This document shows positions 2,013-42,695 of a stretch of DNA of 64,000 nucleotides, one piece after another. The notes beneath the pieces were generated by a model. That model was not told where the DNA came from and ran no database searches. It saw nothing but the letters and a program-made list of their open reading frames with translations. The translations under genes and the position numbers were made by a program. Position 1 is the stretch's first letter. Each line of letters starts with the position of its first letter. This stretch comes from a virus (Duplodnaviria; Caudoviricetes): positions 1 through 64,000 of the IMG/VR virus record IMGVR_UViG_3300028833_000124; one strand, written 5' to 3'.

Positions 2013-4580
2013 TCACACCTTGTATTCTAAGTAATTTGGAAGAATGCTGCATTGTTTGTTTAATGCTGATTCTTTTCTTTTCGCATAATAACCAATAGCT
2101 AAACCAGTTTCCTCAATATTTGGAGTGTAAACAACTGTTATTATGTCATTTAACATTAAACTTGTTGAATCTGTTTCCACATTCACTAAATTGAAATGAA
2201 TGGTTTTTGTTAAGTAATCAACTGTGAAATCCACATCTTCAACTAATTCCTGTTCATTATCTCCGCCTTTGTTTAAGTATACATGGCGGATTGGGTCAAC
2301 TGCTGCTGCTCTTAAAACTATGTATTTGTTTTCCAATACTTCGTTAGTTACTTGTATTGTGTCTTCAAAATAGTCTAAGATTAAAGGCATTTCATCATTA
2401 GTTAATCCCTGAATGAATATTGGATTGTAGCTGACTGATAGTTTTCCTGGTTGCATATCATCTAATACAGTTTCATCAAATGTGATTATATCATTATCAT
2501 AATCTACTGTGTAGTCATACCATTCACCATAACTTTGATAGTATCCTTCACCGTTTGGTATGAGTTGACATTCAAGTATTGGGTATGCAGGAATGTTGCT
2601 GAATTGGAATCCGCTGATTATTTGGTTTTCATCTTCATCTAATCCTCCATCAAAGCTTAAATATTCTGTAGTGGATTCATCAGTATATAAGTATGGTTTG
2701 ATGTATACATTGGATTTCTTTAATGTTTCAAGGATTGTTGGATTGTCAACAAGGTATGTGCATCTTTCATCATCATCAGTTTTACTTGCAATATTGCTTT
2801 GATGTGTTTCACTTAACAAGTAGGTGAATTCATCTAATTCTGAAACTGTGATTACTTCAAAATGTTCTTTAACAATTTTATCCTGGATAAGTTCTGCACT
2901 ACATTCTACCTCACTTGATTCAACTGTAAATGGAGCGTTAGCTCTTCCCCAAACTGCAGCTCCAAGCATTGGTGTGATTTTTGGATTATACATTTGTGTG
3001 CGGACATACATGCTTGTTGGTAAAGTACAATGCACAGTAATGTTTACTTTTTGAATGCTTGGTGTTTCAGTATTATTTGTGCTGGTTTGCCACATTTTTG
3101 CACGTACAAATAATATGGTTGGTTTGCCAGTTATTGCTGCTCTTGAAGTTCCAATTGTATGCCAGTCTTCTGGTTTGTTTCTATTACCTGTGGTGGAATA
3201 TTCAAATTCTAGGAATCTTCCTCTGTCATGGTCTGTGTCATCCCATCCGCTGCATTGAGCACTAATATCAATTCCAGTTATTGGATTTGTGAATATTGGT
3301 TTAAAATATAAGTAATTATAGTTTTCTTCCTCACTATCGAATGAAACATATTCTTCTGAGTGTTCTACGATTTTACATTCAAAAGCAAAGTCTTGTGGAG
3401 TGTATTTTCCTTGTTTATATTCAATTTTATCCAAGTCATTTTTACCATATCTTGTGAATGATCTTCCATTGTTTTCAGATAAAAATGCATCACCATCATT
3501 ATATCTATGACTGCAGTTTCTTCCCCATCCACCTATTCTTGGTGCTTGCTCCCAATGTGCTAATGGACAGAAAACTACAATAGCATAATGTTCATCTTTA
3601 GTTACATTACAAGGAGTATCAAATACAAAACTGTGGAATCCAGGAGTTGCATATTTAGGGTCAAATACTGCTTCTGCTAAAGGATGGTTTATCATTGCAG
3701 CATTATTAGCGAGTCGTGTAACTGGATAATATATTGTTTCAGTTTGACGGATATGTGTTCCGTTTTTATTTTTAACCCATTTCCCTTTGTTTTTACCAGA
3801 AGTAATTTTCTTATATTTCTGTTTTGTAGTACCTGAAGGCGCAGTTATATATACATATTCAGATGCTTTCTTTTTCTTGTTCCATGTTGTAACAGGTACT
3901 TCTTTTGGAGTTGTTGGCCATATTTGAACATATAATGGACTTCCCCATCCAACCCATTTACTACCATTGGTTTCAAGTTGTAATGAAACAGATTCTAATA
4001 CACCAGTTTTACCACATTTGAATGTTTGAGCACGAACAATTGAAGGAATATTATGTACTTTATGATTTTTTAACCATTCAGGATATAATACATAAGGTTT
4101 TGCTTTATTATACCCTACATACCAGTAAGTATTAACTCCACCGTTTTCCTTCATGTTTTTTGTATTGAAATCTTCAGTTACAATCTCTTGTTTTGGTAAT
4201 ACTGCTCTTTTATGTATGGATGCAACACCATCTGATACTGTGGGATATGATTCGATTACACAATCACTTATATCCATATCTAGTAATGATTCGTCGCTGA
4301 AATCTATTGGTATGATTACTTCAGTATCACTGTTGAAGTTAACTGTATTGTTCAAACCATTGACTTGAAATCCGTAACTTTTTGTTGGATCAACAACAAT
4401 GGGGTTGAATCTTTTACGTACATATGGGTTGATGCGGTAGTCTAATCTTTCAATTTCTTGTTTTAGATATTCATCATTTTCACAGTTCTGGTCTGCCCAT
4501 TGTTTAACTGCATATTGTTGTTCTCCAGTTGATGCTATTTTATTTAAATTTTTATAGATTGGTTTGCAATTTTCGGCCAT
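2013..4580 (-). CDS. Large baseplate/tail structural protein
   Basis: 855 aa, beta-rich, between baseplate and fibre genes; function inferred from synteny. Confidence 0.45.
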   Translation of the reverse strand: MAENCKPIYKNLNKIASTGEQQYAVKQWADQNCENDEYLKQEIERLDYRINPYVRKRFNPIVVDPTKSYGFQVNGLNNTVNFNSDTEVIIPIDFSDESLLDMDISDCVIESYPTVSDGVASIHKRAVLPKQEIVTEDFNTKNMKENGGVNTYWYVGYNKAKPYVLYPEWLKNHKVHNIPSIVRAQTFKCGKTGVLESVSLQLETNGSKWVGWGSPLYVQIWPTTPKEVPVTTWNKKKKASEYVYITAPSGTTKQKYKKITSGKNKGKWVKNKNGTHIRQTETIYYPVTRLANNAAMINHPLAEAVFDPKYATPGFHSFVFDTPCNVTKDEHYAIVVFCPLAHWEQAPRIGGWGRNCSHRYNDGDAFLSENNGRSFTRYGKNDLDKIEYKQGKYTPQDFAFECKIVEHSEEYVSFDSEEENYNYLYFKPIFTNPITGIDISAQCSGWDDTDHDRGRFLEFEYSTTGNRNKPEDWHTIGTSRAAITGKPTILFVRAKMWQTSTNNTETPSIQKVNITVHCTLPTSMYVRTQMYNPKITPMLGAAVWGRANAPFTVESSEVECSAELIQDKIVKEHFEVITVSELDEFTYLLSETHQSNIASKTDDDERCTYLVDNPTILETLKKSNVYIKPYLYTDESTTEYLSFDGGLDEDENQIISGFQFSNIPAYPILECQLIPNGEGYYQSYGEWYDYTVDYDNDIITFDETVLDDMQPGKLSVSYNPIFIQGLTNDEMPLILDYFEDTIQVTNEVLENKYIVLRAAAVDPIRHVYLNKGGDNEQELVEDVDFTVDYLTKTIHFNLVNVETDSTSLMLNDIITVVYTPNIEETGLAIGYYAKRKESALNKQCSILPNYLEYKV

Positions 4581-4582
4581 GT

Positions 4583-5284
4583 TTAATTCACCTGCACAAC
4601 AATTTCTTCTTCATTAATATCTCTTAGTTTATCAGAATCTTTTGTAGGTCGGATGTAAAGGTTTTGGGATGTGGAATCATAGTAGTAACCTCCTTTGATT
4701 GTGTGTAAATCTTCTATTGTGGTTACTCTTCGATATCCGTTTCCGGTGTTGTTTTCAAATACTCCTATGACTTCGTTCTTTTCTGTGATGTAGAATATGT
4801 TGTTTCCTTGGGTGGCTTCTTGCCATCCTCTGCGGATTGAACCTGTTGCTAATTGGAATCTGTATTCTACTGTTACTTCCCCGATTGCACCTGATAAGAA
4901 TTGGTCATCTATTTTCACATATCGGTCGTGACTTATCATGATTTTGTCATTGAATACTCCGATTTCACTTGTTCCTAACATTTCACTTGCTTTGAATGAT
5001 GCGGTTAGTATTAATCTTTTGTTTTGTAAATCTGCTTCGCAAGTGCATCTTCTTCTGCTTGTTTCATTACCTAGATTCAAGTCAGATTTTTGAGGTTGGT
5101 TGGAACCGTTTCCTACTGCGATGTATTCTATTGGGTTGAATGCATCGTTTATCCATCTGTTTAAAAAGAAGGATTCACCAAATTGTGTGATTAGATTATG
5201 ATTTGTGAATTCTAATTTTGTATTTAGAAACATTGTTTGTAGGGGAATGCTAATTGTATAACTTCCTGTAACACCGAAATTCAT
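4583..5284 (-). CDS. Tail-fibre attachment / baseplate protein (P2 gpH N-terminal-like)
   Basis: YIAVGNGSNQP...LGNETSR...SEIGVF pattern typical of fibre-attachment domains. Confidence 0.5.
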   Translation of the reverse strand: MNFGVTGSYTISIPLQTMFLNTKLEFTNHNLITQFGESFFLNRWINDAFNPIEYIAVGNGSNQPQKSDLNLGNETSRRRCTCEADLQNKRLILTASFKASEMLGTSEIGVFNDKIMISHDRYVKIDDQFLSGAIGEVTVEYRFQLATGSIRRGWQEATQGNNIFYITEKNEVIGVFENNTGNGYRRVTTIEDLHTIKGGYYYDSTSQNLYIRPTKDSDKLRDINEEEIVVQVN

Positions 5285-34943: not shown

Positions 34944-35270
34944 TTAGCAACCATCTTCGTCACCAACTACCACATCATCACTGATTTCATCTTCTTCTGA
35001 GATAGTTGGATCAACAATAATATCATCAGTTTCTTCTGGAACTGTTTCAGAATATTGTTCATGAACCATTTGTTCAGCTCTATTTACTCTTATATTTTCA
35101 GTCCCTTGTGTGACAATATATGCAGCTATACCTACAATTGGTGGTATTAACCATGCATAATCTGGAGGTATAATTTGAGCTAATCCGTCTTTACCAAGAT
35201 ATGCTATAAACATTGCAATGAATGATATAGCAGTTGCAAATTTTGATTTGTATTTGTAAGTTTCAACCAT
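34944..35270 (-). CDS. Holin-like membrane protein
   Basis: Two TM segments and acidic tail; start refined to MVETYK (35270, AGGGGT RBS) because the longer ORF-track start lies inside the RNA element. Confidence 0.55.
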   Translation of the reverse strand: MVETYKYKSKFATAISFIAMFIAYLGKDGLAQIIPPDYAWLIPPIVGIAAYIVTQGTENIRVNRAEQMVHEQYSETVPEETDDIIVDPTISEEDEISDDVVVGDEDGC

Positions 35271-35315
35271 AATATTACCCCTAAATAAATAGATTATAAA
35301 AAATAAAATTTTAAA

Positions 35316-35444
35316 GCTGTGAGGAGGATTTGCACCTCCATTTAAGGCTCCATGGACATTATTGTCAAAATACAATAGAATGTGACATTTAATTGAAATT
35401 ATAAGAGACTTTTAATTTTTTTATTTTGCCATGTTCTCCACAGC
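35316..35444 (-). ncRNA. tRNA-like RNA 1 (acceptor stem plus T-arm, enlarged interior)
   Basis: 5' GCUGUGG pairs with 3' UCACAGC; T-arm GGAGG-UGCAAAU-CCUCC; followed by a U-rich tract; no encoded CCA. Confidence 0.6.
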
Positions 35445-35450
35445 ATACAC

Positions 35451-35654
35451 TTATATGATGAGAAGACCGTAAGGTAAATCTATTTTGAATCCTGCAACAT
35501 AGTCAGAACTAGCACGGGTGATTAAACCACATATGGTACAGTATTCATAACTGCGGTTTTCACTACGAACAATTGTTAATGTCTTACAGTCAGGACATTT
35601 ATCAGTATTCTCTACTTCCTCAATTTCATCGTCTTCTAGTTCTTCATTGCACAT
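35451..35654 (-). CDS. TFIIB/TFB-type zinc-ribbon protein
   Basis: CPDC-x15-CTICGLI resembles the TFB N-terminal ribbon. Confidence 0.6.
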   Translation of the reverse strand: MCNEELEDDEIEEVENTDKCPDCKTLTIVRSENRSYEYCTICGLITRASSDYVAGFKIDLPYGLLII

Positions 35655-35876
35655 AGATTCCCAATTATTTGATTTTTGAATAAAAAAAAGTTTTTTATAA
35701 TATCTTCTCTATTAGTAAGTTAATACCTAGCGGAAACATTAATATTTGAGGGAATATCTTTTTCTAGTTGGAACTAGTTTAAAATAATAAACTATTATAT
35801 ACTAGTAACTATATATAACATATCAGTATAAAATTTTTTTGTTTCTTTTTTTAAAAAAGAAAAGGCAACCATCTAA

Positions 35877-36233
35877 TCATTTATCCAACACTGCAACATA
35901 AGTAAAACCATCCTTAACCTCAATAACCAACCTAAAATGAATATAAAACCATCCAGTAATATTAATAAACACTTCACTAGTCCTCGGAGGATTATCTGTA
36001 TAAAACTCAATACTTGGCCTTGCACCACCAACCTCAATAACACCATCATCCCTTAACAAAACACCATCCTCACCAAGACCAGGTAAATTAATAGTAACCG
36101 GACCTAAATTAGTTTCACACTTCAACAAACCATCAACATCACAATCATCAACATCACAAACATTAATCTTAACCATAATAATCACCTTCCCATTCAAAAA
36201 AATACATAAAATCCTTACCCACAGGAACAACAA
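35877..36233 (-). CDS. Hypothetical protein
   Basis: ORF; real start likely MVKINV. Confidence 0.5.
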   Translation of the reverse strand: MLFLWVRILCIFLNGKVIIMVKINVCDVDDCDVDGLLKCETNLGPVTINLPGLGEDGVLLRDDGVIEVGGARPSIEFYTDNPPRTSEVFINITGWFYIHFRLVIEVKDGFTYVAVLDK

Positions 36234-36591
36234 CTCTCACATTATTAAATAACTTAAAACAAATCTTATCAGAACAAAAAACAACACAATCTAAATGCCG
36301 TAAATTAAAACAATAATCCTTACGCTTACGATAACTACCAGAATCCGTATAAACAGTCTCATACTCACAATTAGTTAAAACCAATTCAGCATCATAAATA
36401 ACATTCACTTGAGAATAATACTCAGTAATGCTTTTCAATAAATTAACAACTTCCGGATTGTCCAATAAGTCTTTTGAATCAAATTGAACTGTAGGTTTGT
36501 TTAAACGAAGATTCGCACCACTAAACATATTATCTTTTACCTTCCCTAACAAGAATGTCATGCTCATCAATAGTATGGTTACGTGGAACAA
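36169..36591 (-). CDS. Hypothetical protein
   Basis: ORF; real start likely MFSGAN. Confidence 0.5.
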   Translation of the reverse strand: MFHVTILLMSMTFLLGKVKDNMFSGANLRLNKPTVQFDSKDLLDNPEVVNLLKSITEYYSQVNVIYDAELVLTNCEYETVYTDSGSYRKRKDYCFNLRHLDCVVFCSDKICFKLFNNVRVVVPVGKDFMYFFEWEGDYYG

Positions 36592-37045
36592 TCGGAATGC
36601 GCTGCATAAAATTTTCCAATAATCTGCAAACTATAATTTCAAAAACTTGATCTGTTAAACCATACTTTTTTGATACCCTGTAACTTTGTAATTTTATTTT
36701 GCTGTTTTCAATCTTTTTAACATAAAACATGAATGCTAAGATTATGCATTTTTCTGAAGCTGTATGATGTAGTTTTTTAAAGTTGCTGCTGAATTCATCT
36801 ATTAGGTATCTGACAAGTTTTTTCTGATTTGGGGATAGGACTAATGTTTTTGCTTCAAGGCATAATTCATCAAAGTCATTGAATAATTCTAAGCATAATT
36901 CATCAAATATTAAATGTCTGTTTTTTCTTTTTTGTTCATATCTTACTTTTCTGTTTGTTTCTTTGCTTCTTATTTCTCCTCTGACATAGGGCTTTTCATA
37001 TAATCCTAATAAATATTCTAAGCTTCTTTCTTTCATAAAAATCAC
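36530..37045 (-). CDS. Helical protein resembling a TFB cyclin-fold repeat
   Basis: LSPNQKKLVRYLI...SEKCIILAFMFYV...VSKKYGLTDQVF helix pattern; weak similarity by eye. Confidence 0.4.
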   Translation of the reverse strand: MIFMKERSLEYLLGLYEKPYVRGEIRSKETNRKVRYEQKRKNRHLIFDELCLELFNDFDELCLEAKTLVLSPNQKKLVRYLIDEFSSNFKKLHHTASEKCIILAFMFYVKKIENSKIKLQSYRVSKKYGLTDQVFEIIVCRLLENFMQRIPIVPRNHTIDEHDILVREGKR

Positions 37046-37236
37046 ATGATTGAATTTTTTTTTGGTTTTAATTTTATAATTCTCCTATGCATCTTCTTTT
37101 AGCTATTACTCCTAATCGAACCCAATCTGTTTCATCAGGATTAGCTTCAATTACTTCGTTGATTATTCTTTTTACTTCATCTTTATCAGCACATCTGTAT
37201 GCATCCCAGCAGGTGCGAACATACATGTGAACTTTA

Positions 37237-37563
37237 TCATGCATTTTTATCAACTACTTTGAATTGAATATAATAAATTCTTGTAAGATTATCTAAAGTC
37301 GGATAAATGTTTAATAATTCATTTTTTAATTCTTGCGCAGTTTTATATCCTTCTAAATTTGCATCTTCCTTGTTTAAATATTTGAATTGTTTATATCCAG
37401 TATCTGTAATTTGTATGAAACATTCTTTTTCAGTTCCAGGAAATATTGCTTTAACTATTTCATCTTTTTTGAATTTTTTATTGTGTTTTCTGATTGTTTG
37501 TCTTTTAATTCCGGAAATAATATCCTGATAATATTTTTTATTGAATTTTAATAATTCATACAT
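37237..37563 (-). CDS. ASCH domain protein
   Basis: IISGIKRQTIR...EDANLEG signature. Confidence 0.82.
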   Translation of the reverse strand: MYELLKFNKKYYQDIISGIKRQTIRKHNKKFKKDEIVKAIFPGTEKECFIQITDTGYKQFKYLNKEDANLEGYKTAQELKNELLNIYPTLDNLTRIYYIQFKVVDKNA

Positions 37564-37569
37564 AATTTT

Positions 37570-37773
37570 TTATCTCCTGTTTTTTTCATAATGTTGGCAT
37601 GCTGTGTCATTGAATTTTATTTTTAAAGTTGGTGTTTCAGATGGTTCTGCTCCATCCGGTTGTGGTTCTGGTGGGAATAGTTCATCTACCTTGCTGCAGT
37701 AATGGTAGAAGTATCCATCGGTTGTTGTTTCGGTTCGTGTGTAATGTTTGCATTTTCCACAAATGTTAACCAT
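37570..37773 (-). CDS. Small Cys-rich protein
   Basis: CGKCKHY...YCSK...CQHY. Confidence 0.55.
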   Translation of the reverse strand: MVNICGKCKHYTRTETTTDGYFYHYCSKVDELFPPEPQPDGAEPSETPTLKIKFNDTACQHYEKNRR

Positions 37774-37776
37774 ATT

Positions 37777-38430
37777 TTAATCCCCTTTAACATCAACATC
37801 TTGGATTTTATCTAATCCTTCAATTGCTTCCTTCATTATTCTTTTAGATTCTTGAACAACTGGATTGTCATTGTTGGCCATCATTTCATCTTCATATAAT
37901 CTTTTCAAATGAGTTAAGTAATCAATAGCTTTCACAATATCTTCTGAAGCATTGTGTTTATGTCCTGCACGGACAGTATATTTAATCACATTTCCTTTAA
38001 TGAAACCTATAAGTTCTTCACGTGATAATAAACCTTTTTTAAATGCTTCCAATGGACTTAATCCATTGCCTGCATAATAGTCCGGTTCAGCTAATCTTTC
38101 AGTTGGTTCATTTTTATGTTTTTCTTCAAGTTCTCTAATACTTATTGGAACATCAGTCATATTATCATCTTCTTCTTTATCAAGCACATCCCCTAAAACA
38201 ACCATATCTTCGTTTAGAGGTGAATGCATATTTTTTATTAGATTTTGTTTAAAAATTTCTAATTCTTCACCACTCATCGAATCATCATTCTTATTTTCTT
38301 TTACCCATTTTTCAAACAGTTTTTCAGTATCCACACCGGTATTTGCACCATTCTGATTTAATATTTCCGCAAATAATATTCGACCTAATTCTTCATCACG
38401 TAATGCATCATTTAACATAAAACTAAACAA
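37777..38430 (-). CDS. DUF3310-family protein
   Basis: PDYY...GFIKGNVIKYTVRAGHK...EDIVKAIDYL. Confidence 0.78.
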   Translation of the reverse strand: MFSFMLNDALRDEELGRILFAEILNQNGANTGVDTEKLFEKWVKENKNDDSMSGEELEIFKQNLIKNMHSPLNEDMVVLGDVLDKEEDDNMTDVPISIRELEEKHKNEPTERLAEPDYYAGNGLSPLEAFKKGLLSREELIGFIKGNVIKYTVRAGHKHNASEDIVKAIDYLTHLKRLYEDEMMANNDNPVVQESKRIMKEAIEGLDKIQDVDVKGD

Positions 38431-38716
38431 CTCCTAAATCAATTACCTCATCTGCATTAATAATACAATACTCTAAAATTGAATCATAATTAAAAAAAGC
38501 AACAGTACCATTGCTTTGACTTATTTTAATCCAATATTCATCAAAATAAATCTCCTCCACTTTACGTAAATAAAAAACAGTACTGGCTTCATGATAATTT
38601 AATTGGAAAGATAAAGCAAAATCATTAATCTTTTCCTTAACCTTATCCAATACTTCTTTAACATTATTTATAATCAAAGGAGCTCTTTCATTTATCCCAA
38701 TTTCCATTATAATCAT
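38423..38716 (-). CDS. Hypothetical protein
   Basis: Coupled ORF. Confidence 0.55.
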   Translation of the reverse strand: MIIMEIGINERAPLIINNVKEVLDKVKEKINDFALSFQLNYHEASTVFYLRKVEEIYFDEYWIKISQSNGTVAFFNYDSILEYCIINADEVIDLGVV

Positions 38717-39393
38717 ATCCTTTTTCGATTTATTGCACGCATAACAATACCTGCAGTTTTACTACCAATTCCTTTAATTTCTTGTAAAGTATTATTATCT
38801 AACTTTAACAAGTCATCTAAATCATATAATCCTAGATTATCAACTATTAATTCAGCAGTATCATCACCAATATGTTTAGTTAATGCCAGATAATTGAATG
38901 CAGGATTATCAGTTTTCTGTTTTAATCTTTTCACAACATGTTTATTATCAAGACATTTTCGGGATTGTTGTCTCATGAATTTTATAGCTCTTTCTTCTGT
39001 ACTGCATTCTTTAACAGTGGTGAAAGTGTTTAATCTTGCTATTGCTCCATCATAATTATCCCATCCAAAGACATATGCTTCTCCATCAAAACCATCAAAC
39101 ATTTCATGTTTCTCCAGGTCACTTGCAACTACTATTACAAAATGGTATGGGAAATTTGTTGTTTGGTCGATTGCTTGGTTAAATATGCGTTTGCTTTCAA
39201 CACTATCAATGAAATCAGTTAATGTTTTGTATTCAAAGCATACTTGATTATTGAATATATAATCGCCTACTAGTAATTCTTTTACAGTTACATTGTCTTG
39301 TTTGGATTTGTAGTAACATGCTGCTTTTCTGATTCTGTCATCGTGTTCACGATGATCTATCTGTATATTGAAATTTTTTATTTTTCGTGACAT
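38713..39393 (-). CDS. ERCC4/XPF-family nuclease with C-terminal helix-hairpin-helix
   Basis: IDHRE, VGDY, EYKTLTDF..S, IKGIGSKTA. Confidence 0.9.
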   Translation of the reverse strand: MSRKIKNFNIQIDHREHDDRIRKAACYYKSKQDNVTVKELLVGDYIFNNQVCFEYKTLTDFIDSVESKRIFNQAIDQTTNFPYHFVIVVASDLEKHEMFDGFDGEAYVFGWDNYDGAIARLNTFTTVKECSTEERAIKFMRQQSRKCLDNKHVVKRLKQKTDNPAFNYLALTKHIGDDTAELIVDNLGLYDLDDLLKLDNNTLQEIKGIGSKTAGIVMRAINRKRI

Positions 39394-39395
39394 GG

Positions 39396-40142
39396 TTAAT
39401 CAGTTTCTTCAAGTCTTGGTGCTAATAGGAATTTTAATGCTCCATCTCCAGTTATTAATTCAAATGTTAATTCTAATGGGATATCATCACCCAGGCTTAA
39501 TATGCAGGTTTCGCTTAATCCGCTTGCTTTCATCATGTCTTTTAGTTTTTCAAAACTGAATAATGATGTGTAAATGTCGGTTACGTGTTCGCCGTGGAGG
39601 TATTTTATTTCTCCGTCTCCGAATGTTCCGTCTGCTTTTATGATGAGATAATCTTGATTTACTATGAATTTTATTTTGTCGCTGAATATGCTCATGTCAG
39701 TTAAGGCATCTTTCAAAACATTGGAAGGTATCTTTAAATTAACTGGATGGTCAATCTTTGGAGGAGTTGCCGGTTCATAATTCATATCTATTAATCGAAG
39801 ATTAAATTTCCTTGTTGCATCACCTTCAAAGATTAATATTACATTACCCTCATCTACAGTAAGTCGTAAAATATCTGATGTTTTGCATTTTTTCAAAACT
39901 TTAATAAACTCAGAAGTATCAATATTCAACTTCTCAGGAACACTACAAACATACTCATCAAACAAATCTTTAGTTAATTCCATATTAACAAAAGTAATAT
40001 GACTACGGTCCAATGCTTTTAAACGAATACCCTCTGAATCACATTCTAAAACCACTTCATCAATAATATTACTAATACTTTCAAAAATATCTTTAAAAAT
40101 TTTATTATTACTTAATTCTAATTTAAAAGTCAATAAACTCAA
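39396..40142 (-). CDS. pcn: Archaeal-type PCNA sliding clamp
   Basis: ALDRSHITFVNMEL, C-terminal LKFLLAPRLE; 248 aa. Confidence 0.95.
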   Translation of the reverse strand: MSLLTFKLELSNNKIFKDIFESISNIIDEVVLECDSEGIRLKALDRSHITFVNMELTKDLFDEYVCSVPEKLNIDTSEFIKVLKKCKTSDILRLTVDEGNVILIFEGDATRKFNLRLIDMNYEPATPPKIDHPVNLKIPSNVLKDALTDMSIFSDKIKFIVNQDYLIIKADGTFGDGEIKYLHGEHVTDIYTSLFSFEKLKDMMKASGLSETCILSLGDDIPLELTFELITGDGALKFLLAPRLEETD

Positions 40143-40441
40143 CTCCTTGCTCTTCTTCCTTTTGGATTGGATTTATATGGATTTTTACTCCACTTAATTG
40201 GATTATTAGGTCGTTCATGCTTATTCGGAATAATAACTGCTCCCACAATAAAATTCAAATCAATTAAACATCTATCACCTTTCAAAACATTACCCTGCTT
40301 AAATGAAACATCATGTTCAGGTTCAATAATAAACTTCCAATAACTCTTTTCAGAGGACCTTTCTTTATCTGTGAGTAATCTAACTGCTTTATTTTCAGAT
40401 TTAGCTTCTTGAATTAATTCATATAATGCAGTTGAATTCAT
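40139..40441 (-). CDS. Hypothetical protein
   Basis: Coupled ORF. Confidence 0.55.
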   Translation of the reverse strand: MNSTALYELIQEAKSENKAVRLLTDKERSSEKSYWKFIIEPEHDVSFKQGNVLKGDRCLIDLNFIVGAVIIPNKHERPNNPIKWSKNPYKSNPKGRRARS

Positions 40442-40447
40442 AATCCC

Positions 40448-40807
40448 TTAATCCTCATTTGATTCTTCTTCTAATTTACCTACACTAAACAGGTATTTAG
40501 TTCTGATTTCAGTTGTGTCCTGCAAATGATTTTCAACTATTACACGATTATTAATAATCAATGATAAATTAAACACATCACAGAAATCACCTATTTGTTC
40601 CAGGTTAAATAAGTCACCATTACATGTTAATGTTACTGTGCCTTGATCTTCAAATTCAATATGGAAATTTGATGTTTCACCTACAGTTTGCAAATAATTT
40701 TTCATTGCATCTGTGATTTTAAGGTTTATTTCAATCATTTGAATTCGCACTTTCCTGTGTTGTTCGATTATTCTATGCCAGAATTTAGCATCATTATTTT
40801 CAGTCAT
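40448..40807 (-). CDS. Hypothetical protein
   Basis: Coupled ORF. Confidence 0.55.
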   Translation of the reverse strand: MTENNDAKFWHRIIEQHRKVRIQMIEINLKITDAMKNYLQTVGETSNFHIEFEDQGTVTLTCNGDLFNLEQIGDFCDVFNLSLIINNRVIVENHLQDTTEIRTKYLFSVGKLEEESNED

Positions 40808-41007
40808 TCATCATCATCTCCCTTCTGATAGATATCTTTAATGGGAACATCATCAAATTGCTCTAACCATTGACGTTCCTCTTCATCCAAAACAGCCATA
40901 TCTCGCTTATAACATTCATTAATATAAGCAATGGCCTCATCTTTTTTTTTAGTTAATAATGCTTTCTTATTTTTGATAGCATTTAACATTTGATTAGCAG
41001 AATTCAT
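40804..41007 (-). CDS. Hypothetical coiled-coil protein (first gene of its operon, apparently leaderless)
   Basis: No RBS; TGTTACAATA motif 28 nt upstream. Confidence 0.55.
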   Translation of the reverse strand: MNSANQMLNAIKNKKALLTKKKDEAIAYINECYKRDMAVLDEEERQWLEQFDDVPIKDIYQKGDDDE

Positions 41008-41035
41008 AATAATATATATTGAAAAAACTTTGAAC

Positions 41036-41046
41036 TATTGTAACAC
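41036..41046 (-). promoter_or_regulatory. GTGTTACAATA motif in the 54-bp divergent spacer
   Basis: 28 nt upstream of ATG 41007, same spacing as at 43801. Confidence 0.5.
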
Positions 41047-41061
41047 CAATAAAATAATATT

Positions 41062-42099
41062 ATGTTAAACAATAAGCTATTCAAAAGATTTTGTAGAGAA
41101 AGAAACATAAAAGAAAGCACCGCAAGTGGTTATGAGTCAGCATTGAAACATTACATTAAATTTCATAAGAAAAGTTTGGATTTTTTAATGCAGGAAGCAG
41201 TAACTGATGAAAATGAAATGGTTCCTTTAAAGGATAGGAAAGTTAAAAAAAGATTGTTGAATTACAGAAGTTATCTGTTAAAAGGTAATAATTCTCCGAA
41301 TACTGTGAGAACATATTTCACTAAGGTTAAAACTTTTTATATTCATTTTGATATTGAGATTCCTCATTTGCCTGATGCTAAGTATGAAAGATTATATGAA
41401 ACTAATTATTTGGATTTGCCTACTCATGAGCATATTCGTCAGGCATGTGATATTTGTGGTTTGGATTTGAAAAGTGTTATTCTTTTTATGAGTTCTTCGG
41501 GTACTGCTAAGGCCGAAACTTTAAGCATTACTGTGGAACAATTTGTTAATGGAACAAGACAATTTCATAATGGTGGATCATTAGAACTAATACTGGAAAC
41601 ATTAGCTCATAAAAAAAATGTTATTCCAACTTTTTATTTGAAACGAATTAAAACTGATAAATATTATTATACTTTTTGCAGTCCTGAAGCTACACGATAT
41701 ATTGTGAAATATTTGCAGACTAGGAAAGATTTAAAGTTGTCAGATAAGTTGTTTGATTTTACAGCTGCTAAATTGTTGAATAAGTTTCAAGAAATTAATG
41801 ATCGTATGGGTTGGGGGTTTAAAGGCAAATACCGTTTCTTTCGTGCTCATACTTTGCGGAAGTTTCATGCTTCCAATATTGGTTTAGCTGCCGAATATAT
41901 TGATGAATTACAGGGCAGGTCTAAAAATTATGTTCATAGCACATATATTAAAACTAATCCTGAGAAGTTGAAAAGGATTTATAAGTCTGCTATGCATAAT
42001 GTTTTGATTTATAATAAGGATGATGTTGATGTGGTTAATCAGGAGTTTACTATTGTGATTAATGTTTTTTTATCTGGTAAGGAATATAATATTTTATAG
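41062..42099 (+). CDS. int: Tyrosine recombinase/integrase
   Basis: N-terminal SAM-like domain; SSGTAKAE, HTLRKF, LQGR, HSTY; only clear plus-strand gene. Confidence 0.85.
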   Translation: MLNNKLFKRFCRERNIKESTASGYESALKHYIKFHKKSLDFLMQEAVTDENEMVPLKDRKVKKRLLNYRSYLLKGNNSPNTVRTYFTKVKTFYIHFDIEIPHLPDAKYERLYETNYLDLPTHEHIRQACDICGLDLKSVILFMSSSGTAKAETLSITVEQFVNGTRQFHNGGSLELILETLAHKKNVIPTFYLKRIKTDKYYYTFCSPEATRYIVKYLQTRKDLKLSDKLFDFTAAKLLNKFQEINDRMGWGFKGKYRFFRAHTLRKFHASNIGLAAEYIDELQGRSKNYVHSTYIKTNPEKLKRIYKSAMHNVLIYNKDDVDVVNQEFTIVINVFLSGKEYNIL

Positions 42100-42108
42100 A
42101 AAAAATAG

Positions 42109-42270
42109 GGAGGAGGGAAGAATTGCACTTCCACTTAATCCCCGTACAATATCCAGCCACAGTTCCAACGTCTTTCCTTGATTATTATTTATTACTTATT
42201 AACCCACAGTAACCATAATCAAAGTGGGATATTCCCATAGGAAGTCGTGCCTAATTACACCAACTCCTCC
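42109..42270 (-). ncRNA. tRNA-like RNA 2 (acceptor, D-arm, T-arm, ~90-nt insertion in the anticodon arm)
   Basis: GGAGGAG/CUCCUCC acceptor; GUGU-AAUUAG-GCAC D-arm; GGAAG-UGCAAUU-CUUCC T-arm; oligo-U after the 3' end. Confidence 0.65.
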
Positions 42271-42287: not shown

Positions 42288-42695
42288 TTAATCTTCTTTT
42301 ATGGTGTTAATTTCAATAATATTATCCAAATTAATAGCTTTATCGATTGGCGGGATTATTGTTGGGTCTTCACTACTTTCTGGCCAGAATAATAAATTTT
42401 CATGAATGCCAACAGGTTCATCTTTATTGATGATATATTTGTTACCATTTAATGCTATGAGTTCAGTATTATGTTTACCATAATTTTGCTGTAATACTTC
42501 CATGAATCCTTCATCAGTTGTGAATTCATAAATATGACCTAATTTATTTTGGATATAGTCTAATATTTGGATTTGATTTAGAAACTTGTTTGTAGCTGTT
42601 TCATCTTCTTTTTCTTTAGCTTCATTTAGTTTGTCCATCAATTCCATTCTTTCAGTATTAATAATGTTGATTATTGTTTTTGCTTCTGATTTCAT
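42288..42695 (-). CDS. Hypothetical protein
   Basis: ORF. Confidence 0.55.
   Translation of the reverse strand: MKSEAKTIINIINTERMELMDKLNEAKEKEDETATNKFLNQIQILDYIQNKLGHIYEFTTDEGFMEVLQQNYGKHNTELIALNGNKYIINKDEPVGIHENLLFWPESSEDPTIIPPIDKAINLDNIIEINTIKED

Follow-up and report, generated by a model that had tools for sequence, protein, structure and literature searches.

Two tRNA-Like Elements in the Genome of a Methanobrevibacter Virus

The first 64 kb of the IMG/VR virus record IMGVR_UViG_3300028833_000124, in the following called the window (64,000 nucleotides, nt), contain two minus-strand elements, el1 and el2, which are predicted tRNA-derived RNAs. They belong to two separate families, which are carried by tailed viruses, and by proviruses, of Methanobrevibacter from the rumen and the gut. 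The whole record has a size of 83.6 kb and a G+C content of about 31%, and it was classified as complete by CheckV. Homologues of a recombinase encoded in the window were found in rumen and gut Methanobrevibacter genomes, and therefore Methanobrevibacter is regarded as the host. DNA that is nearly identical to the window is present in sheep-gut metagenomes. The two elements and their parts are as follows:

35316–35444, minus strand: el1, a predicted tRNA-derived RNA of 129 nt with an acceptor stem, one long variable arm, and a T-arm (sequence; 107.8 bits with the covariance model R1; 11 distinct members)
35438–35444, minus strand: 5′-strand of the el1 acceptor stem, GCUGUGG, which pairs with 35316–35322
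35340–35437, minus strand: central A/U-rich domain of el1 in place of the D-arm and the anticodon arm, with a 22-nt motif at 35386–35407 that is kept in most members
35323–35339, minus strand: T-arm of el1, GGAGG-UGCAAAU-CCUCC, with stem changes on both sides among homologues
35316–35322, minus strand: 3′-strand of the el1 acceptor stem, UCACAGC, with the discriminator U at 35315
35298–35315, minus strand: U-rich tract past el1 (read from the sequence), a possible archaeal oligo-U terminator; not kept directly 3′ of the element in L131 and G004
42109–42270, minus strand: el2, a predicted tRNA-derived RNA of 162 nt with a structured insertion of roughly 100 nt (sequence; one homologue)
42264–42270, minus strand: 5′-strand of the el2 acceptor stem, GGAGGAG, which forms seven Watson-Crick pairs with 42109–42115
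42247–42260, minus strand: D-arm-like hairpin of el2, GUGU-AAUUAG-GCAC, with GG in the loop (GUGU-AGAAUAG-GCAC in the homologue); used as the D-arm in every forced ARAGORN model
42133–42246, minus strand: inserted domain of el2, with a hairpin at 42225–42237, a long hairpin at 42176–42224, and the invariant 16-mer AAGACGUUGGAACUGU at 42159–42174
42116–42132, minus strand: T-arm of el2, GGAAG-UGCAAUU-CUUCC (GUGGG-UGCAACU-CCCAC in the homologue)
42108–42115, minus strand: 3′-strand of the el2 acceptor stem, CUCCUCC, and the discriminator C (42108); a run of six U follows at 42100–42105

The acceptor stem of el1 consists of six Watson-Crick pairs and a G7-U66 pair. The T-stem is preceded by UAAAU in el1 and by UAAGU in el2, CCA is encoded in neither of the two, and UUUAAAAUUUUAUUUUUU directly follows el1 at its 3′-end. 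No open reading frame (ORF) of at least 50 amino acids covers el2. An ORF with a TTG start (34944–35375) overlaps el1, and homologues of that gene begin at the ATG at 35270; the longer frame is evidently an over-extended call of the holin-like gene that lies downstream of el1.

The original prediction had assigned one common scaffold to both elements, i.e., a 7-bp acceptor stem, a 5-bp T-stem, a UGCAAWU loop, no CCA, and a U-rich 3′-flank. This scaffold is indeed present at both sites, and when all 83.6 kb of the genome were searched for scaffolds with a TGCAAWT loop, exactly these two, el1 and el2, were retrieved. In first-order Markov simulations of the genome, the mean was 0.2 scaffolds per genome, and at least two were found in 7 of 300 simulations. 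The pair of motifs is thus only moderately unlikely by chance; the decisive support is that from homologues with compensatory changes.

Covariation and Internal Organization of the el1 Family

Members of the el1 family were sought via the flanking proteins, via a DNA motif, and with the covariance model R1, which was built from five copies. Eleven distinct members were found; they come from contigs of viruses and of metagenomes and from five Methanobrevibacter genomes. When metagenome contigs were scanned with the 5′-motif of el1, most matches turned out to be coincidences in coding sequences, and one new member (L232) was retained.

A covariation test with a covariance model had been proposed along with the original prediction, and a test of this kind, against shuffles and slid controls, was positive. 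In an alignment of 10 members by R1 the 12 pairs of the acceptor stem and the T-stem were 98.3% paired, and nine of the 12 were changed on both sides (21 cells); the alignment is fitted to the model, but the same stems are apparent in the raw sequences as well. None of 500 shuffles reached the observed level, and slid controls contained 0–3 such pairs. The seven pairs of the acceptor stem were 100% paired in the 10 distinct homologues, with changes on both sides in five of them, and in the T-stem four of the five pairs were changed on both sides. The eleventh member, G004, is divergent and has a length of 177 nt; its acceptor stem (GGUGAUG/CAUCACC) and its T-stem (UCAGG/CCUGA) differ completely in sequence from those of the others, and both are perfect. 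Several stems contain G-U pairs, namely the G7-U66 pair of the window copy, the T-stem of L161, and pair 4 of L160. Because these pairs would read as A-C mismatches on the opposite strand, the structure is that of an RNA on the gene strand.

In the T-loop U54, C56, R57, and A58 are kept in all members of the family, while position 55 is either U or G. Four members have the loops UGCAAAU, UGCAAUU, or UGCAAAC, and the remaining seven have UUCGAUU, UUCGACU, or UUCAAAU. As UUC-type loops are found in seven of the 11 members, the loop with G55 is a recurrent variant and not a signature. The proposal that a UGCAAWU T-loop marks a class of RNAs could thus not be maintained: the loop alternates with UUCRANU within the el1 family, and it also occurs in a tRNA-Ser of the viral contig L022. 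The UAARU segment ahead of the T-stem, which had been listed as another shared trait, did not hold up either, because the relatives of el1 have different linkers.

The total length of the el1-family RNAs varies from 109 to 177 nt, and their interior is A/U-rich and contains neither a D-arm nor an anticodon loop. A block CUUU-AAUUUC-AUUAAA is conserved (alignments A1, A2, and A5). In most members (six of the seven examined) a near copy of the 3′-strand follows the 5′-acceptor strand, so that a local hairpin with a GNGAA-type loop can be formed, and in four to five of these seven a second copy of the 5′-strand is located ahead of the T-arm. Due to these repeated strands, a fold with a 5′-hairpin and a 3′-minihelix would be nearly as stable as the tRNA-like fold, and two folds of nearly equal energy were obtained for L160, L163, and L232. 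Only the long-range fold is universal, because the window copy and G004 are devoid of the second copy of the 5′-strand. A reading of el1 as the gene of a small peptide, which would make use of a conserved AUG that overlaps G1, was rejected, since in L131 and L232 the third codon of this frame is a stop.

The el2 Homologue and the Variable tRNA Gene Island

For el2 one homologue was found, which is located in the Methanobacteriaceae provirus G236 (L200) and also has a length of 162 nt. According to BLAST the two are 80% identical over the first ~122 nt; the 16-mer is invariant and the D-arm-like hairpin is kept. In the acceptor stem pair 7 is changed from G-C to U-A. The T-stem is changed from GGAAG/CUUCC to GUGGG/CCCAC, i.e., three of its five pairs differ on both sides, and the loop of the homologue is UGCAACU. 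Each of the two inner hairpins contains one change on both sides. A search in viral contigs via the ORFs next to el2 did not reveal any relatives, and an 18-nt pattern derived from the 16-mer (AAGACGTTGGAACTGTRG) yielded only chance matches in unrelated phages.

The compensatory changes in the el1 family and in the el2 pair bear out the original prediction that both elements are structured RNAs with a tRNA-like upper half. As judged from these comparisons, the putative coaxial half of acceptor stem and T-arm is kept by selection, and the rest has been replaced, by one long A/U-rich arm in el1 and by a conserved multi-hairpin insertion in el2. Both lower arms are lost in el1 alone, as el2 retains a D-arm-like hairpin.

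The region around el2 is bordered by two genes:

41062–42099, plus strand: tyrosine recombinase gene that converges on el2, with Pfam and PHROG integrase matches
42288–42695, minus strand: ORF at the start of the tRNA gene island; its 3′-end is kept in G001, G002, and G236, directly ahead of their tRNA genes

The segment from this conserved upstream ORF to the 3′-end of the recombinase gene constitutes an island with a content that differs among relatives, and in the window virus el2 is its only occupant. In G002 the island contains a canonical tRNA-Thr(UGU) and a canonical tRNA-Ser(GCU). In G001 there are two tRNA genes that pass the Rfam tRNA model RF00005 (44.5 and 35.6 bits; the gathering cut-off is 29 bits), with D-loop insertions of 36 and 24 nt that are not aligned to the model and with an “anticodon” loop of only 3–5 nt. 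Five genes in a row are found in the G236 provirus. Besides the el2 homologue, they comprise two tRNAs with insertions, a canonical tRNA-Trp(CCA), and a gene with covarying stems that is homologous to one of the G001 genes. Other relatives have a plain G+C-rich hairpin at this site. A reading of el2 as an orphan mimic is not supported, as it resides in a tRNA gene island and appears to be the extreme case in a series of viral tRNA genes with insertions.

Some further properties of these genes were observed. The insertion-bearing tRNA genes of the relatives (L123, 4042–4243, minus strand; L200, 1048–1444, minus strand) pass RF00005, and their unaligned D-loop insertions have sizes of 24–38 nt. 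In the type shared by G001_B and gene t5 of G236 the insertion forms an additional hairpin, the loop of which has 7 nt. This type is kept between viruses, and its acceptor stem and T-stem covary. “Anticodon” loops of 3–5 nt are found in three of the four insertion-bearing genes (G001_A, G001_B, and t5). A minimal tRNA-like element of 65 nt is present in G004 (37688–37752, minus strand; in L156/L138). It reaches 23 bits with RF00005, which is below the cut-off, and it is composed of an acceptor stem (GUGGGUU/AACCCAC), a 4-bp T-arm with a UUCAAAC loop, and an A/U linker of 34 nt.

Two other explanations of el2 were tried and rejected. Strings that resemble the boxes of a C/D-box guide RNA are present in the insert, but are not conserved in the homologue. 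In 314 Methanobacteriaceae genomes no host tRNA matched the 3′-part of el2, the sole match being the provirus copy, and thus el2 was also rejected as an attachment site. In several Methanobrevibacter genomes (L176, L177, L183, L186, and L188) the recombinase homologue abuts the 3′-end of an ORF, the C-terminus of which, as read from the sequence, resembles a type I restriction specificity subunit. The genomic setting of these homologues suggests that the enzyme may serve phase variation or act on a shufflon rather than be an integrase of the classical type.

Genomic Position of el1

The following genes are of importance for the position of el1:

34944–35270, minus strand: holin-like gene 45 nt downstream of el1, which opens the late module; the translation has two hydrophobic segments and an acidic tail
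35451–35654, minus strand: Zn-ribbon ORF, the stop codon of which lies 6 nt ahead of el1
38713–40142, minus strand: genes for a virus-encoded PCNA sliding clamp (39396–40142) and, beside it, an ERCC4-type nuclease with a helix-hairpin-helix domain (38713–39393)

Read along the minus strand, the region begins with small ORFs, which are followed by el2, the converging tyrosine recombinase gene, the genes for PCNA, the ERCC4 nuclease, and a DUF3310 protein, the Zn-ribbon ORF, and el1. Past el1 there follow the holin-like gene, which encodes two transmembrane segments, and genes for a coiled-coil protein, a ParB-like protein, a C5-methylase, TerS, TerL, and head proteins. The coiled-coil protein has a C-terminal membrane anchor and a weak match to a PHROG annotated as “hemolysin.”

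In nine of the 11 family members el1 is located 33–56 nt upstream of the holin-like gene, and the element is flanked by the PCNA and ERCC4 nuclease genes on the upstream side and by the terminase and head genes on the downstream side. The original prediction had placed both elements just past a stop codon, at the 3′-end of an mRNA. Such short distances to a stop codon are found in the window (6 and 17 nt), but not in the relatives, in which the distances are 39–195 nt; the conserved neighbor of el1 is the holin-like gene downstream of it. The gap between the upstream stop codon and el1 is 6 nt in the window and 10 nt in G004, while elsewhere in the family about 100–195 nt separate the end of the Zn-ribbon ORF from the element, and a terminator-like hairpin and TATA-like boxes are sometimes found in between. 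Oligo-U tracts are present 3′ of el1 in the window, L160, L161, and L163, and are absent in L131 and G004. The G236 provirus also carries an el1 member, about 7.6 kb from its el2 homologue, and this spacing is the same as in the window.

The genome G184 (L267) contains two copies of the el1 family (1501–1614 and 2870–2986, plus strand). They are 1.25 kb apart and bracket a cassette with an ORF that has an NPPY motif and probably encodes an N6-adenine methyltransferase.

Three gut metagenomes yielded DNA contigs of near-identical strains, without informative variants inside el1 and el2. Similar contigs from two sheep-gut and gut metagenomes diverge from the window near 35310–35315, i.e., at the 3′-border of el1, and at 35427, which is 17 nt inside its 5′-end. 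These breakpoints suggest that el1 may mark a border at which modules end or recombination occurs in strains that live side by side. Contigs from two metatranscriptome sets of a related sample covered next to nothing of the stretch.

Searches for Known RNAs and Related T-Arms in Other Viruses

A strong match to a described Rfam family would have been at odds with the original prediction. Both elements were compared with known RNAs. ARAGORN with default settings detected neither a tRNA nor a tmRNA in el1 and el2. No Rfam family matched them at the gathering cut-offs or at E ≤ 10, including RF00005, tmRNA, and Y RNA, although the same RF00005 model does detect tRNAs in the relatives G001, G002, G004, and G236. 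BLAST searches against 50,697 phage records did not result in any match, and full-text literature searches did not retrieve a published account of tRNA-like elements in Methanobrevibacter viruses. The assumption that these RNAs had not been described before is in agreement with these results. Genes for TROVE/Ro60 and RtcB were looked for in the virus, and none were found.

UGCAAWU loops were also observed in other viral contigs. A hairpin GGGAGG-UGCAAWU-CCUCCC with conserved flanks occurs in more than 60 marine viral contigs with a G+C content of 40–48% (L003–L122; examples are L012, 48–64 and 2839–2855, and L056, 6313–6329), and in the loci tested no Rfam family was matched at gathering. tRNA-like genes with a T-arm of the type GGAGG/GGAAG-UGCAAWU, followed by a 7-bp acceptor strand, are present in the viral contigs L071, L040, L105, L089, and L022 (32–56% G+C). 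The gene of L071 is an expanded one of 125 nt, and that of L040 is armless and has roughly 60 nt. The gene of L105 (3727–3743) has 83 nt and a GUA anticodon-like arm; it was missed by ARAGORN and did not match RF00005 at gathering. In L022 the gene at 5064–5152 is a bona fide tRNA-Ser(GCU) that passes RF00005 and has a UGCAAAU loop.

Comparison With Known tRNA-Like RNAs

el1 and el2 share several features with canonical and intron-bearing archaeal tRNAs (RF00005), namely the 7-bp acceptor stem, the 5-bp T-stem, the 7-nt loop with U54, C56, R57, and A58, the discriminator, and the lack of an encoded CCA. In the case of el2, the D-arm-like hairpin and the location in a tRNA gene island add to the likeness. 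In contrast to tRNAs, both elements have G55, do not score with RF00005, and do not have a 7-nt anticodon loop on a proper stem. They also differ from intron-bearing archaeal tRNAs in that no conserved bulge-helix-bulge is found at the borders of the insertion.

The tRNA-like domain of bacterial tmRNA is similar in that the acceptor stem and the T-arm are kept, an anticodon arm is missing, and an extended helix or domain stands in for the lower half. However, the G3-U70 alanine identity pair of tmRNA is replaced by U3-A70 in el1 and by A3-U70 in el2, and no Rfam tmRNA match was obtained. A tag frame is not conserved either; short frames with an AUG start vary, and that of L131 has its stop at codon 3. 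Furthermore, an SmpB system is not known from Archaea. mascRNA/MALAT1 and YrlA-type RNAs resemble the elements in the mimicry of tRNAs for the tRNA end-processing enzymes and in the combination of a scaffold with a cargo. They are, however, eukaryotic or bacterial, they have no sequence or Rfam relationship to el1 and el2, and the virus has no Ro60 gene.

The closest parallel to be considered here is that of the t-elements, which have a tRNA-like fold without a function in decoding and lie beside the transcript of another gene, i.e., upstream of the 5S rRNA in Haloferax volcanii (PMC4326828) and at mRNAs in plant mitochondria (PMC1920247). RNase P and tRNase Z cut the t-elements of the haloarchaeon, a property that has been used to release an RNA flanked by them (PMC4326828), while in plant mitochondria t-elements define mRNA ends (PMC1920247). 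el1 shares with them the short fixed distance upstream of a gene. el2, which lies 17 nt past an ORF, fits only loosely, and unlike t-elements it has no downstream gene on the same strand alongside. Both elements differ from t-elements in being viral, in being much larger (up to 177 nt in the family), in having an inserted domain, and in that their cleavage is a prediction.

Proposed Function and Alternative Explanations

RNase P, tRNase Z, and the CCA-adding enzyme recognize a tRNA by the half that comprises the acceptor stem and the T-arm, and therefore el1 and el2 would be expected to act through these host enzymes. The explanation that we favor, tentatively and with a confidence slightly short of an even chance, is that they are t-element-like RNAs recognized by RNase P and tRNase Z, with el1 acting as a leader of the late operon and el2 as a stand-alone tRNA-like RNA with a cargo. 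Located at the boundary between replication and late genes, at a fixed short distance from the first late gene, el1 could be a leader or a punctuation signal. Cuts at G1 of el1 and past the discriminator would split the late message from upstream transcripts and would set its 5′-end, and in the window the oligo-U tract past el1 may also end transcription there. el2 would be released as a stable, independent small RNA of tRNA-like type that carries the conserved inserted domain.

Several observations weigh against this explanation. Most el1 copies are preceded by promoter-like A/T-rich boxes and some by terminator-like hairpins, and therefore el1 could be the start of a primary transcript that does not need a 5′-cut. 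The element is dispensable, as it is missing ahead of the holin-like gene in the close relative G001. In several el1 members the energies of the alternative and the tRNA-like fold differ by no more than about 1 kcal/mol, and the inner structure of el2 is weakly constrained, because only two el2 sequences exist. In addition, the conservation of the 22-nt motif of el1 and of the el2 insertion (80%) suggests functions that may go beyond that of a cutting signal.

The near equality of the two folds leads to an alternative that was considered unlikely, i.e., that el1 is mainly a regulatory leader of the late or lysis genes which is not cut, but alternates between the long-range tRNA-like fold and a pair of local hairpins. 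This switch would be coupled to an oligo-U terminator, and the tRNA-like shape would bind a factor. The repeated acceptor strands would allow the local hairpins, the energies of the two folds are close in L160, L163, and L232, the U-tracts of the window, L160, L161, and L163 could serve as terminators, and the fixed site ahead of the first late gene would be suitable for such a switch. However, the window copy and G004 would have to switch without the second copy of the 5′-strand, and L131 and G004 without the U-tract. The covariation is of no help for this alternative, because the repeated strands resemble each other, so that it cannot separate the two folds of el1. For el2, and less plausibly for el1, it might instead be proposed that a decoding tRNA is encoded, specifically a tRNA-Ser(GGA) or a tRNA-His(AUG), from which one or more large introns would be removed by the splicing endonuclease and the ligase of the host; we regard this as rather improbable. 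The intron mode of ARAGORN indeed modeled el2 as a tRNA-Ser(GGA) with a 67-nt intron, but at a non-canonical site and with weak stems. Scanning with deletions gave Ser(GGA) models for both el2 homologues, and a His(AUG) model with the insert at the canonical position 37/38 for G236 only (default threshold). The D-arm-like hairpin, CUAUGG, and a UUGGAAC loop are conserved between both copies, other insertion-bearing tRNA genes of the island pass Rfam, and el2 of the window can form one bulge-helix-bulge geometry, with a change from C-G to G-C in the central helix of the homologue. The outer helix of this candidate is lost in the G236 homologue, however, and no canonical motif (3-nt bulge, 4-bp helix, 3-nt bulge) is conserved. 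The endonuclease of the Methanobacteriales is of the strict homotetrameric type. Moreover, RF00005 remains silent on el2 even at E ≤ 10, the anticodon stem of every forced cloverleaf has to accommodate mismatches or successive G-U pairs, the Ser and His models are mutually exclusive, and the sequence of the insert is more conserved than the stems, which would be unusual for an intron. For el1 the idea of an intron-bearing tRNA is not tenable, since it has no D-arm, anticodon loop, or bulge-helix-bulge, and no candidate recurs among its family members.

The conservation of the el2 insertion is also what would be expected if the elements were decoys or scaffolds that act in trans, in which a tRNA handle provides processing, a CCA tag, and stability, and a cargo targets a host factor such as a nuclease of a tRNA-directed defence, a modification enzyme, or a Ro60-like protein. 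The identity of 80%, the invariant 16-mer, and the covarying hairpins would be compatible with this, as would the high variability of the tRNA island, which is expected of an arms-race locus. Nevertheless, such a role has a low probability in our opinion. No TROVE/Ro60 or RtcB gene is present in the virus, no Y RNA or other Rfam family was matched, both elements lack the anticodon loop with which an anticodon nuclease could be decoyed, and the interior of el1 is poorly conserved in length and sequence. Very little probability was assigned to the last alternative, that the elements are decaying tRNA pseudogenes or sites at the DNA level, i.e., recombinase attachment sites or protein-binding repeats, without any RNA function. 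tRNA genes are common attachment sites and el2 abuts a tyrosine recombinase gene; furthermore, el1 is present in some and absent from other close relatives, and its repeated strands resemble inverted repeats of DNA. Yet the pairing is held at 98% by two-sided compensatory changes, the G-U pairs are strand-specific, and the 314 Methanobacteriaceae genomes were devoid of a host tRNA that matches the 3′-part of el2. As the homologues of the recombinase border many different host genes, often hsdS-like ones, the enzyme need not be an integrase that uses a tRNA site.

Implications for Viruses of Methanogens

Beyond t-element-like processing by RNase P and tRNase Z, it is tempting to speculate that Methanobrevibacter viruses have a whole repertoire of such RNAs that has not been described before, in which a handle of acceptor stem and T-arm recruits RNase P, tRNase Z, and the CCA enzyme and the inserted domain works separately. 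el1 would then be a conformational switch that times the release of the lysis and late message, and el2 and the insertion-bearing “tRNAs” of the island would be trans-acting cargo, e.g., against a tRNA-directed defence; in this extended form the idea is less likely to be right than wrong by a wide measure.

The organization and timing of transcripts in methanogen viruses are almost unexplored. A conserved tRNA-shaped element at the boundary of early and late genes, together with a variable island of non-canonical tRNA-like genes 7 kb away, points to a possible role of the tRNA-processing enzymes of the host in the gene expression of an archaeal virus, comparable to the tRNA punctuation of organelles. 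If cleavage were confirmed, the elements would be ready-made processing cassettes for the genetics of methanogens, as the t-elements are in Haloferax.

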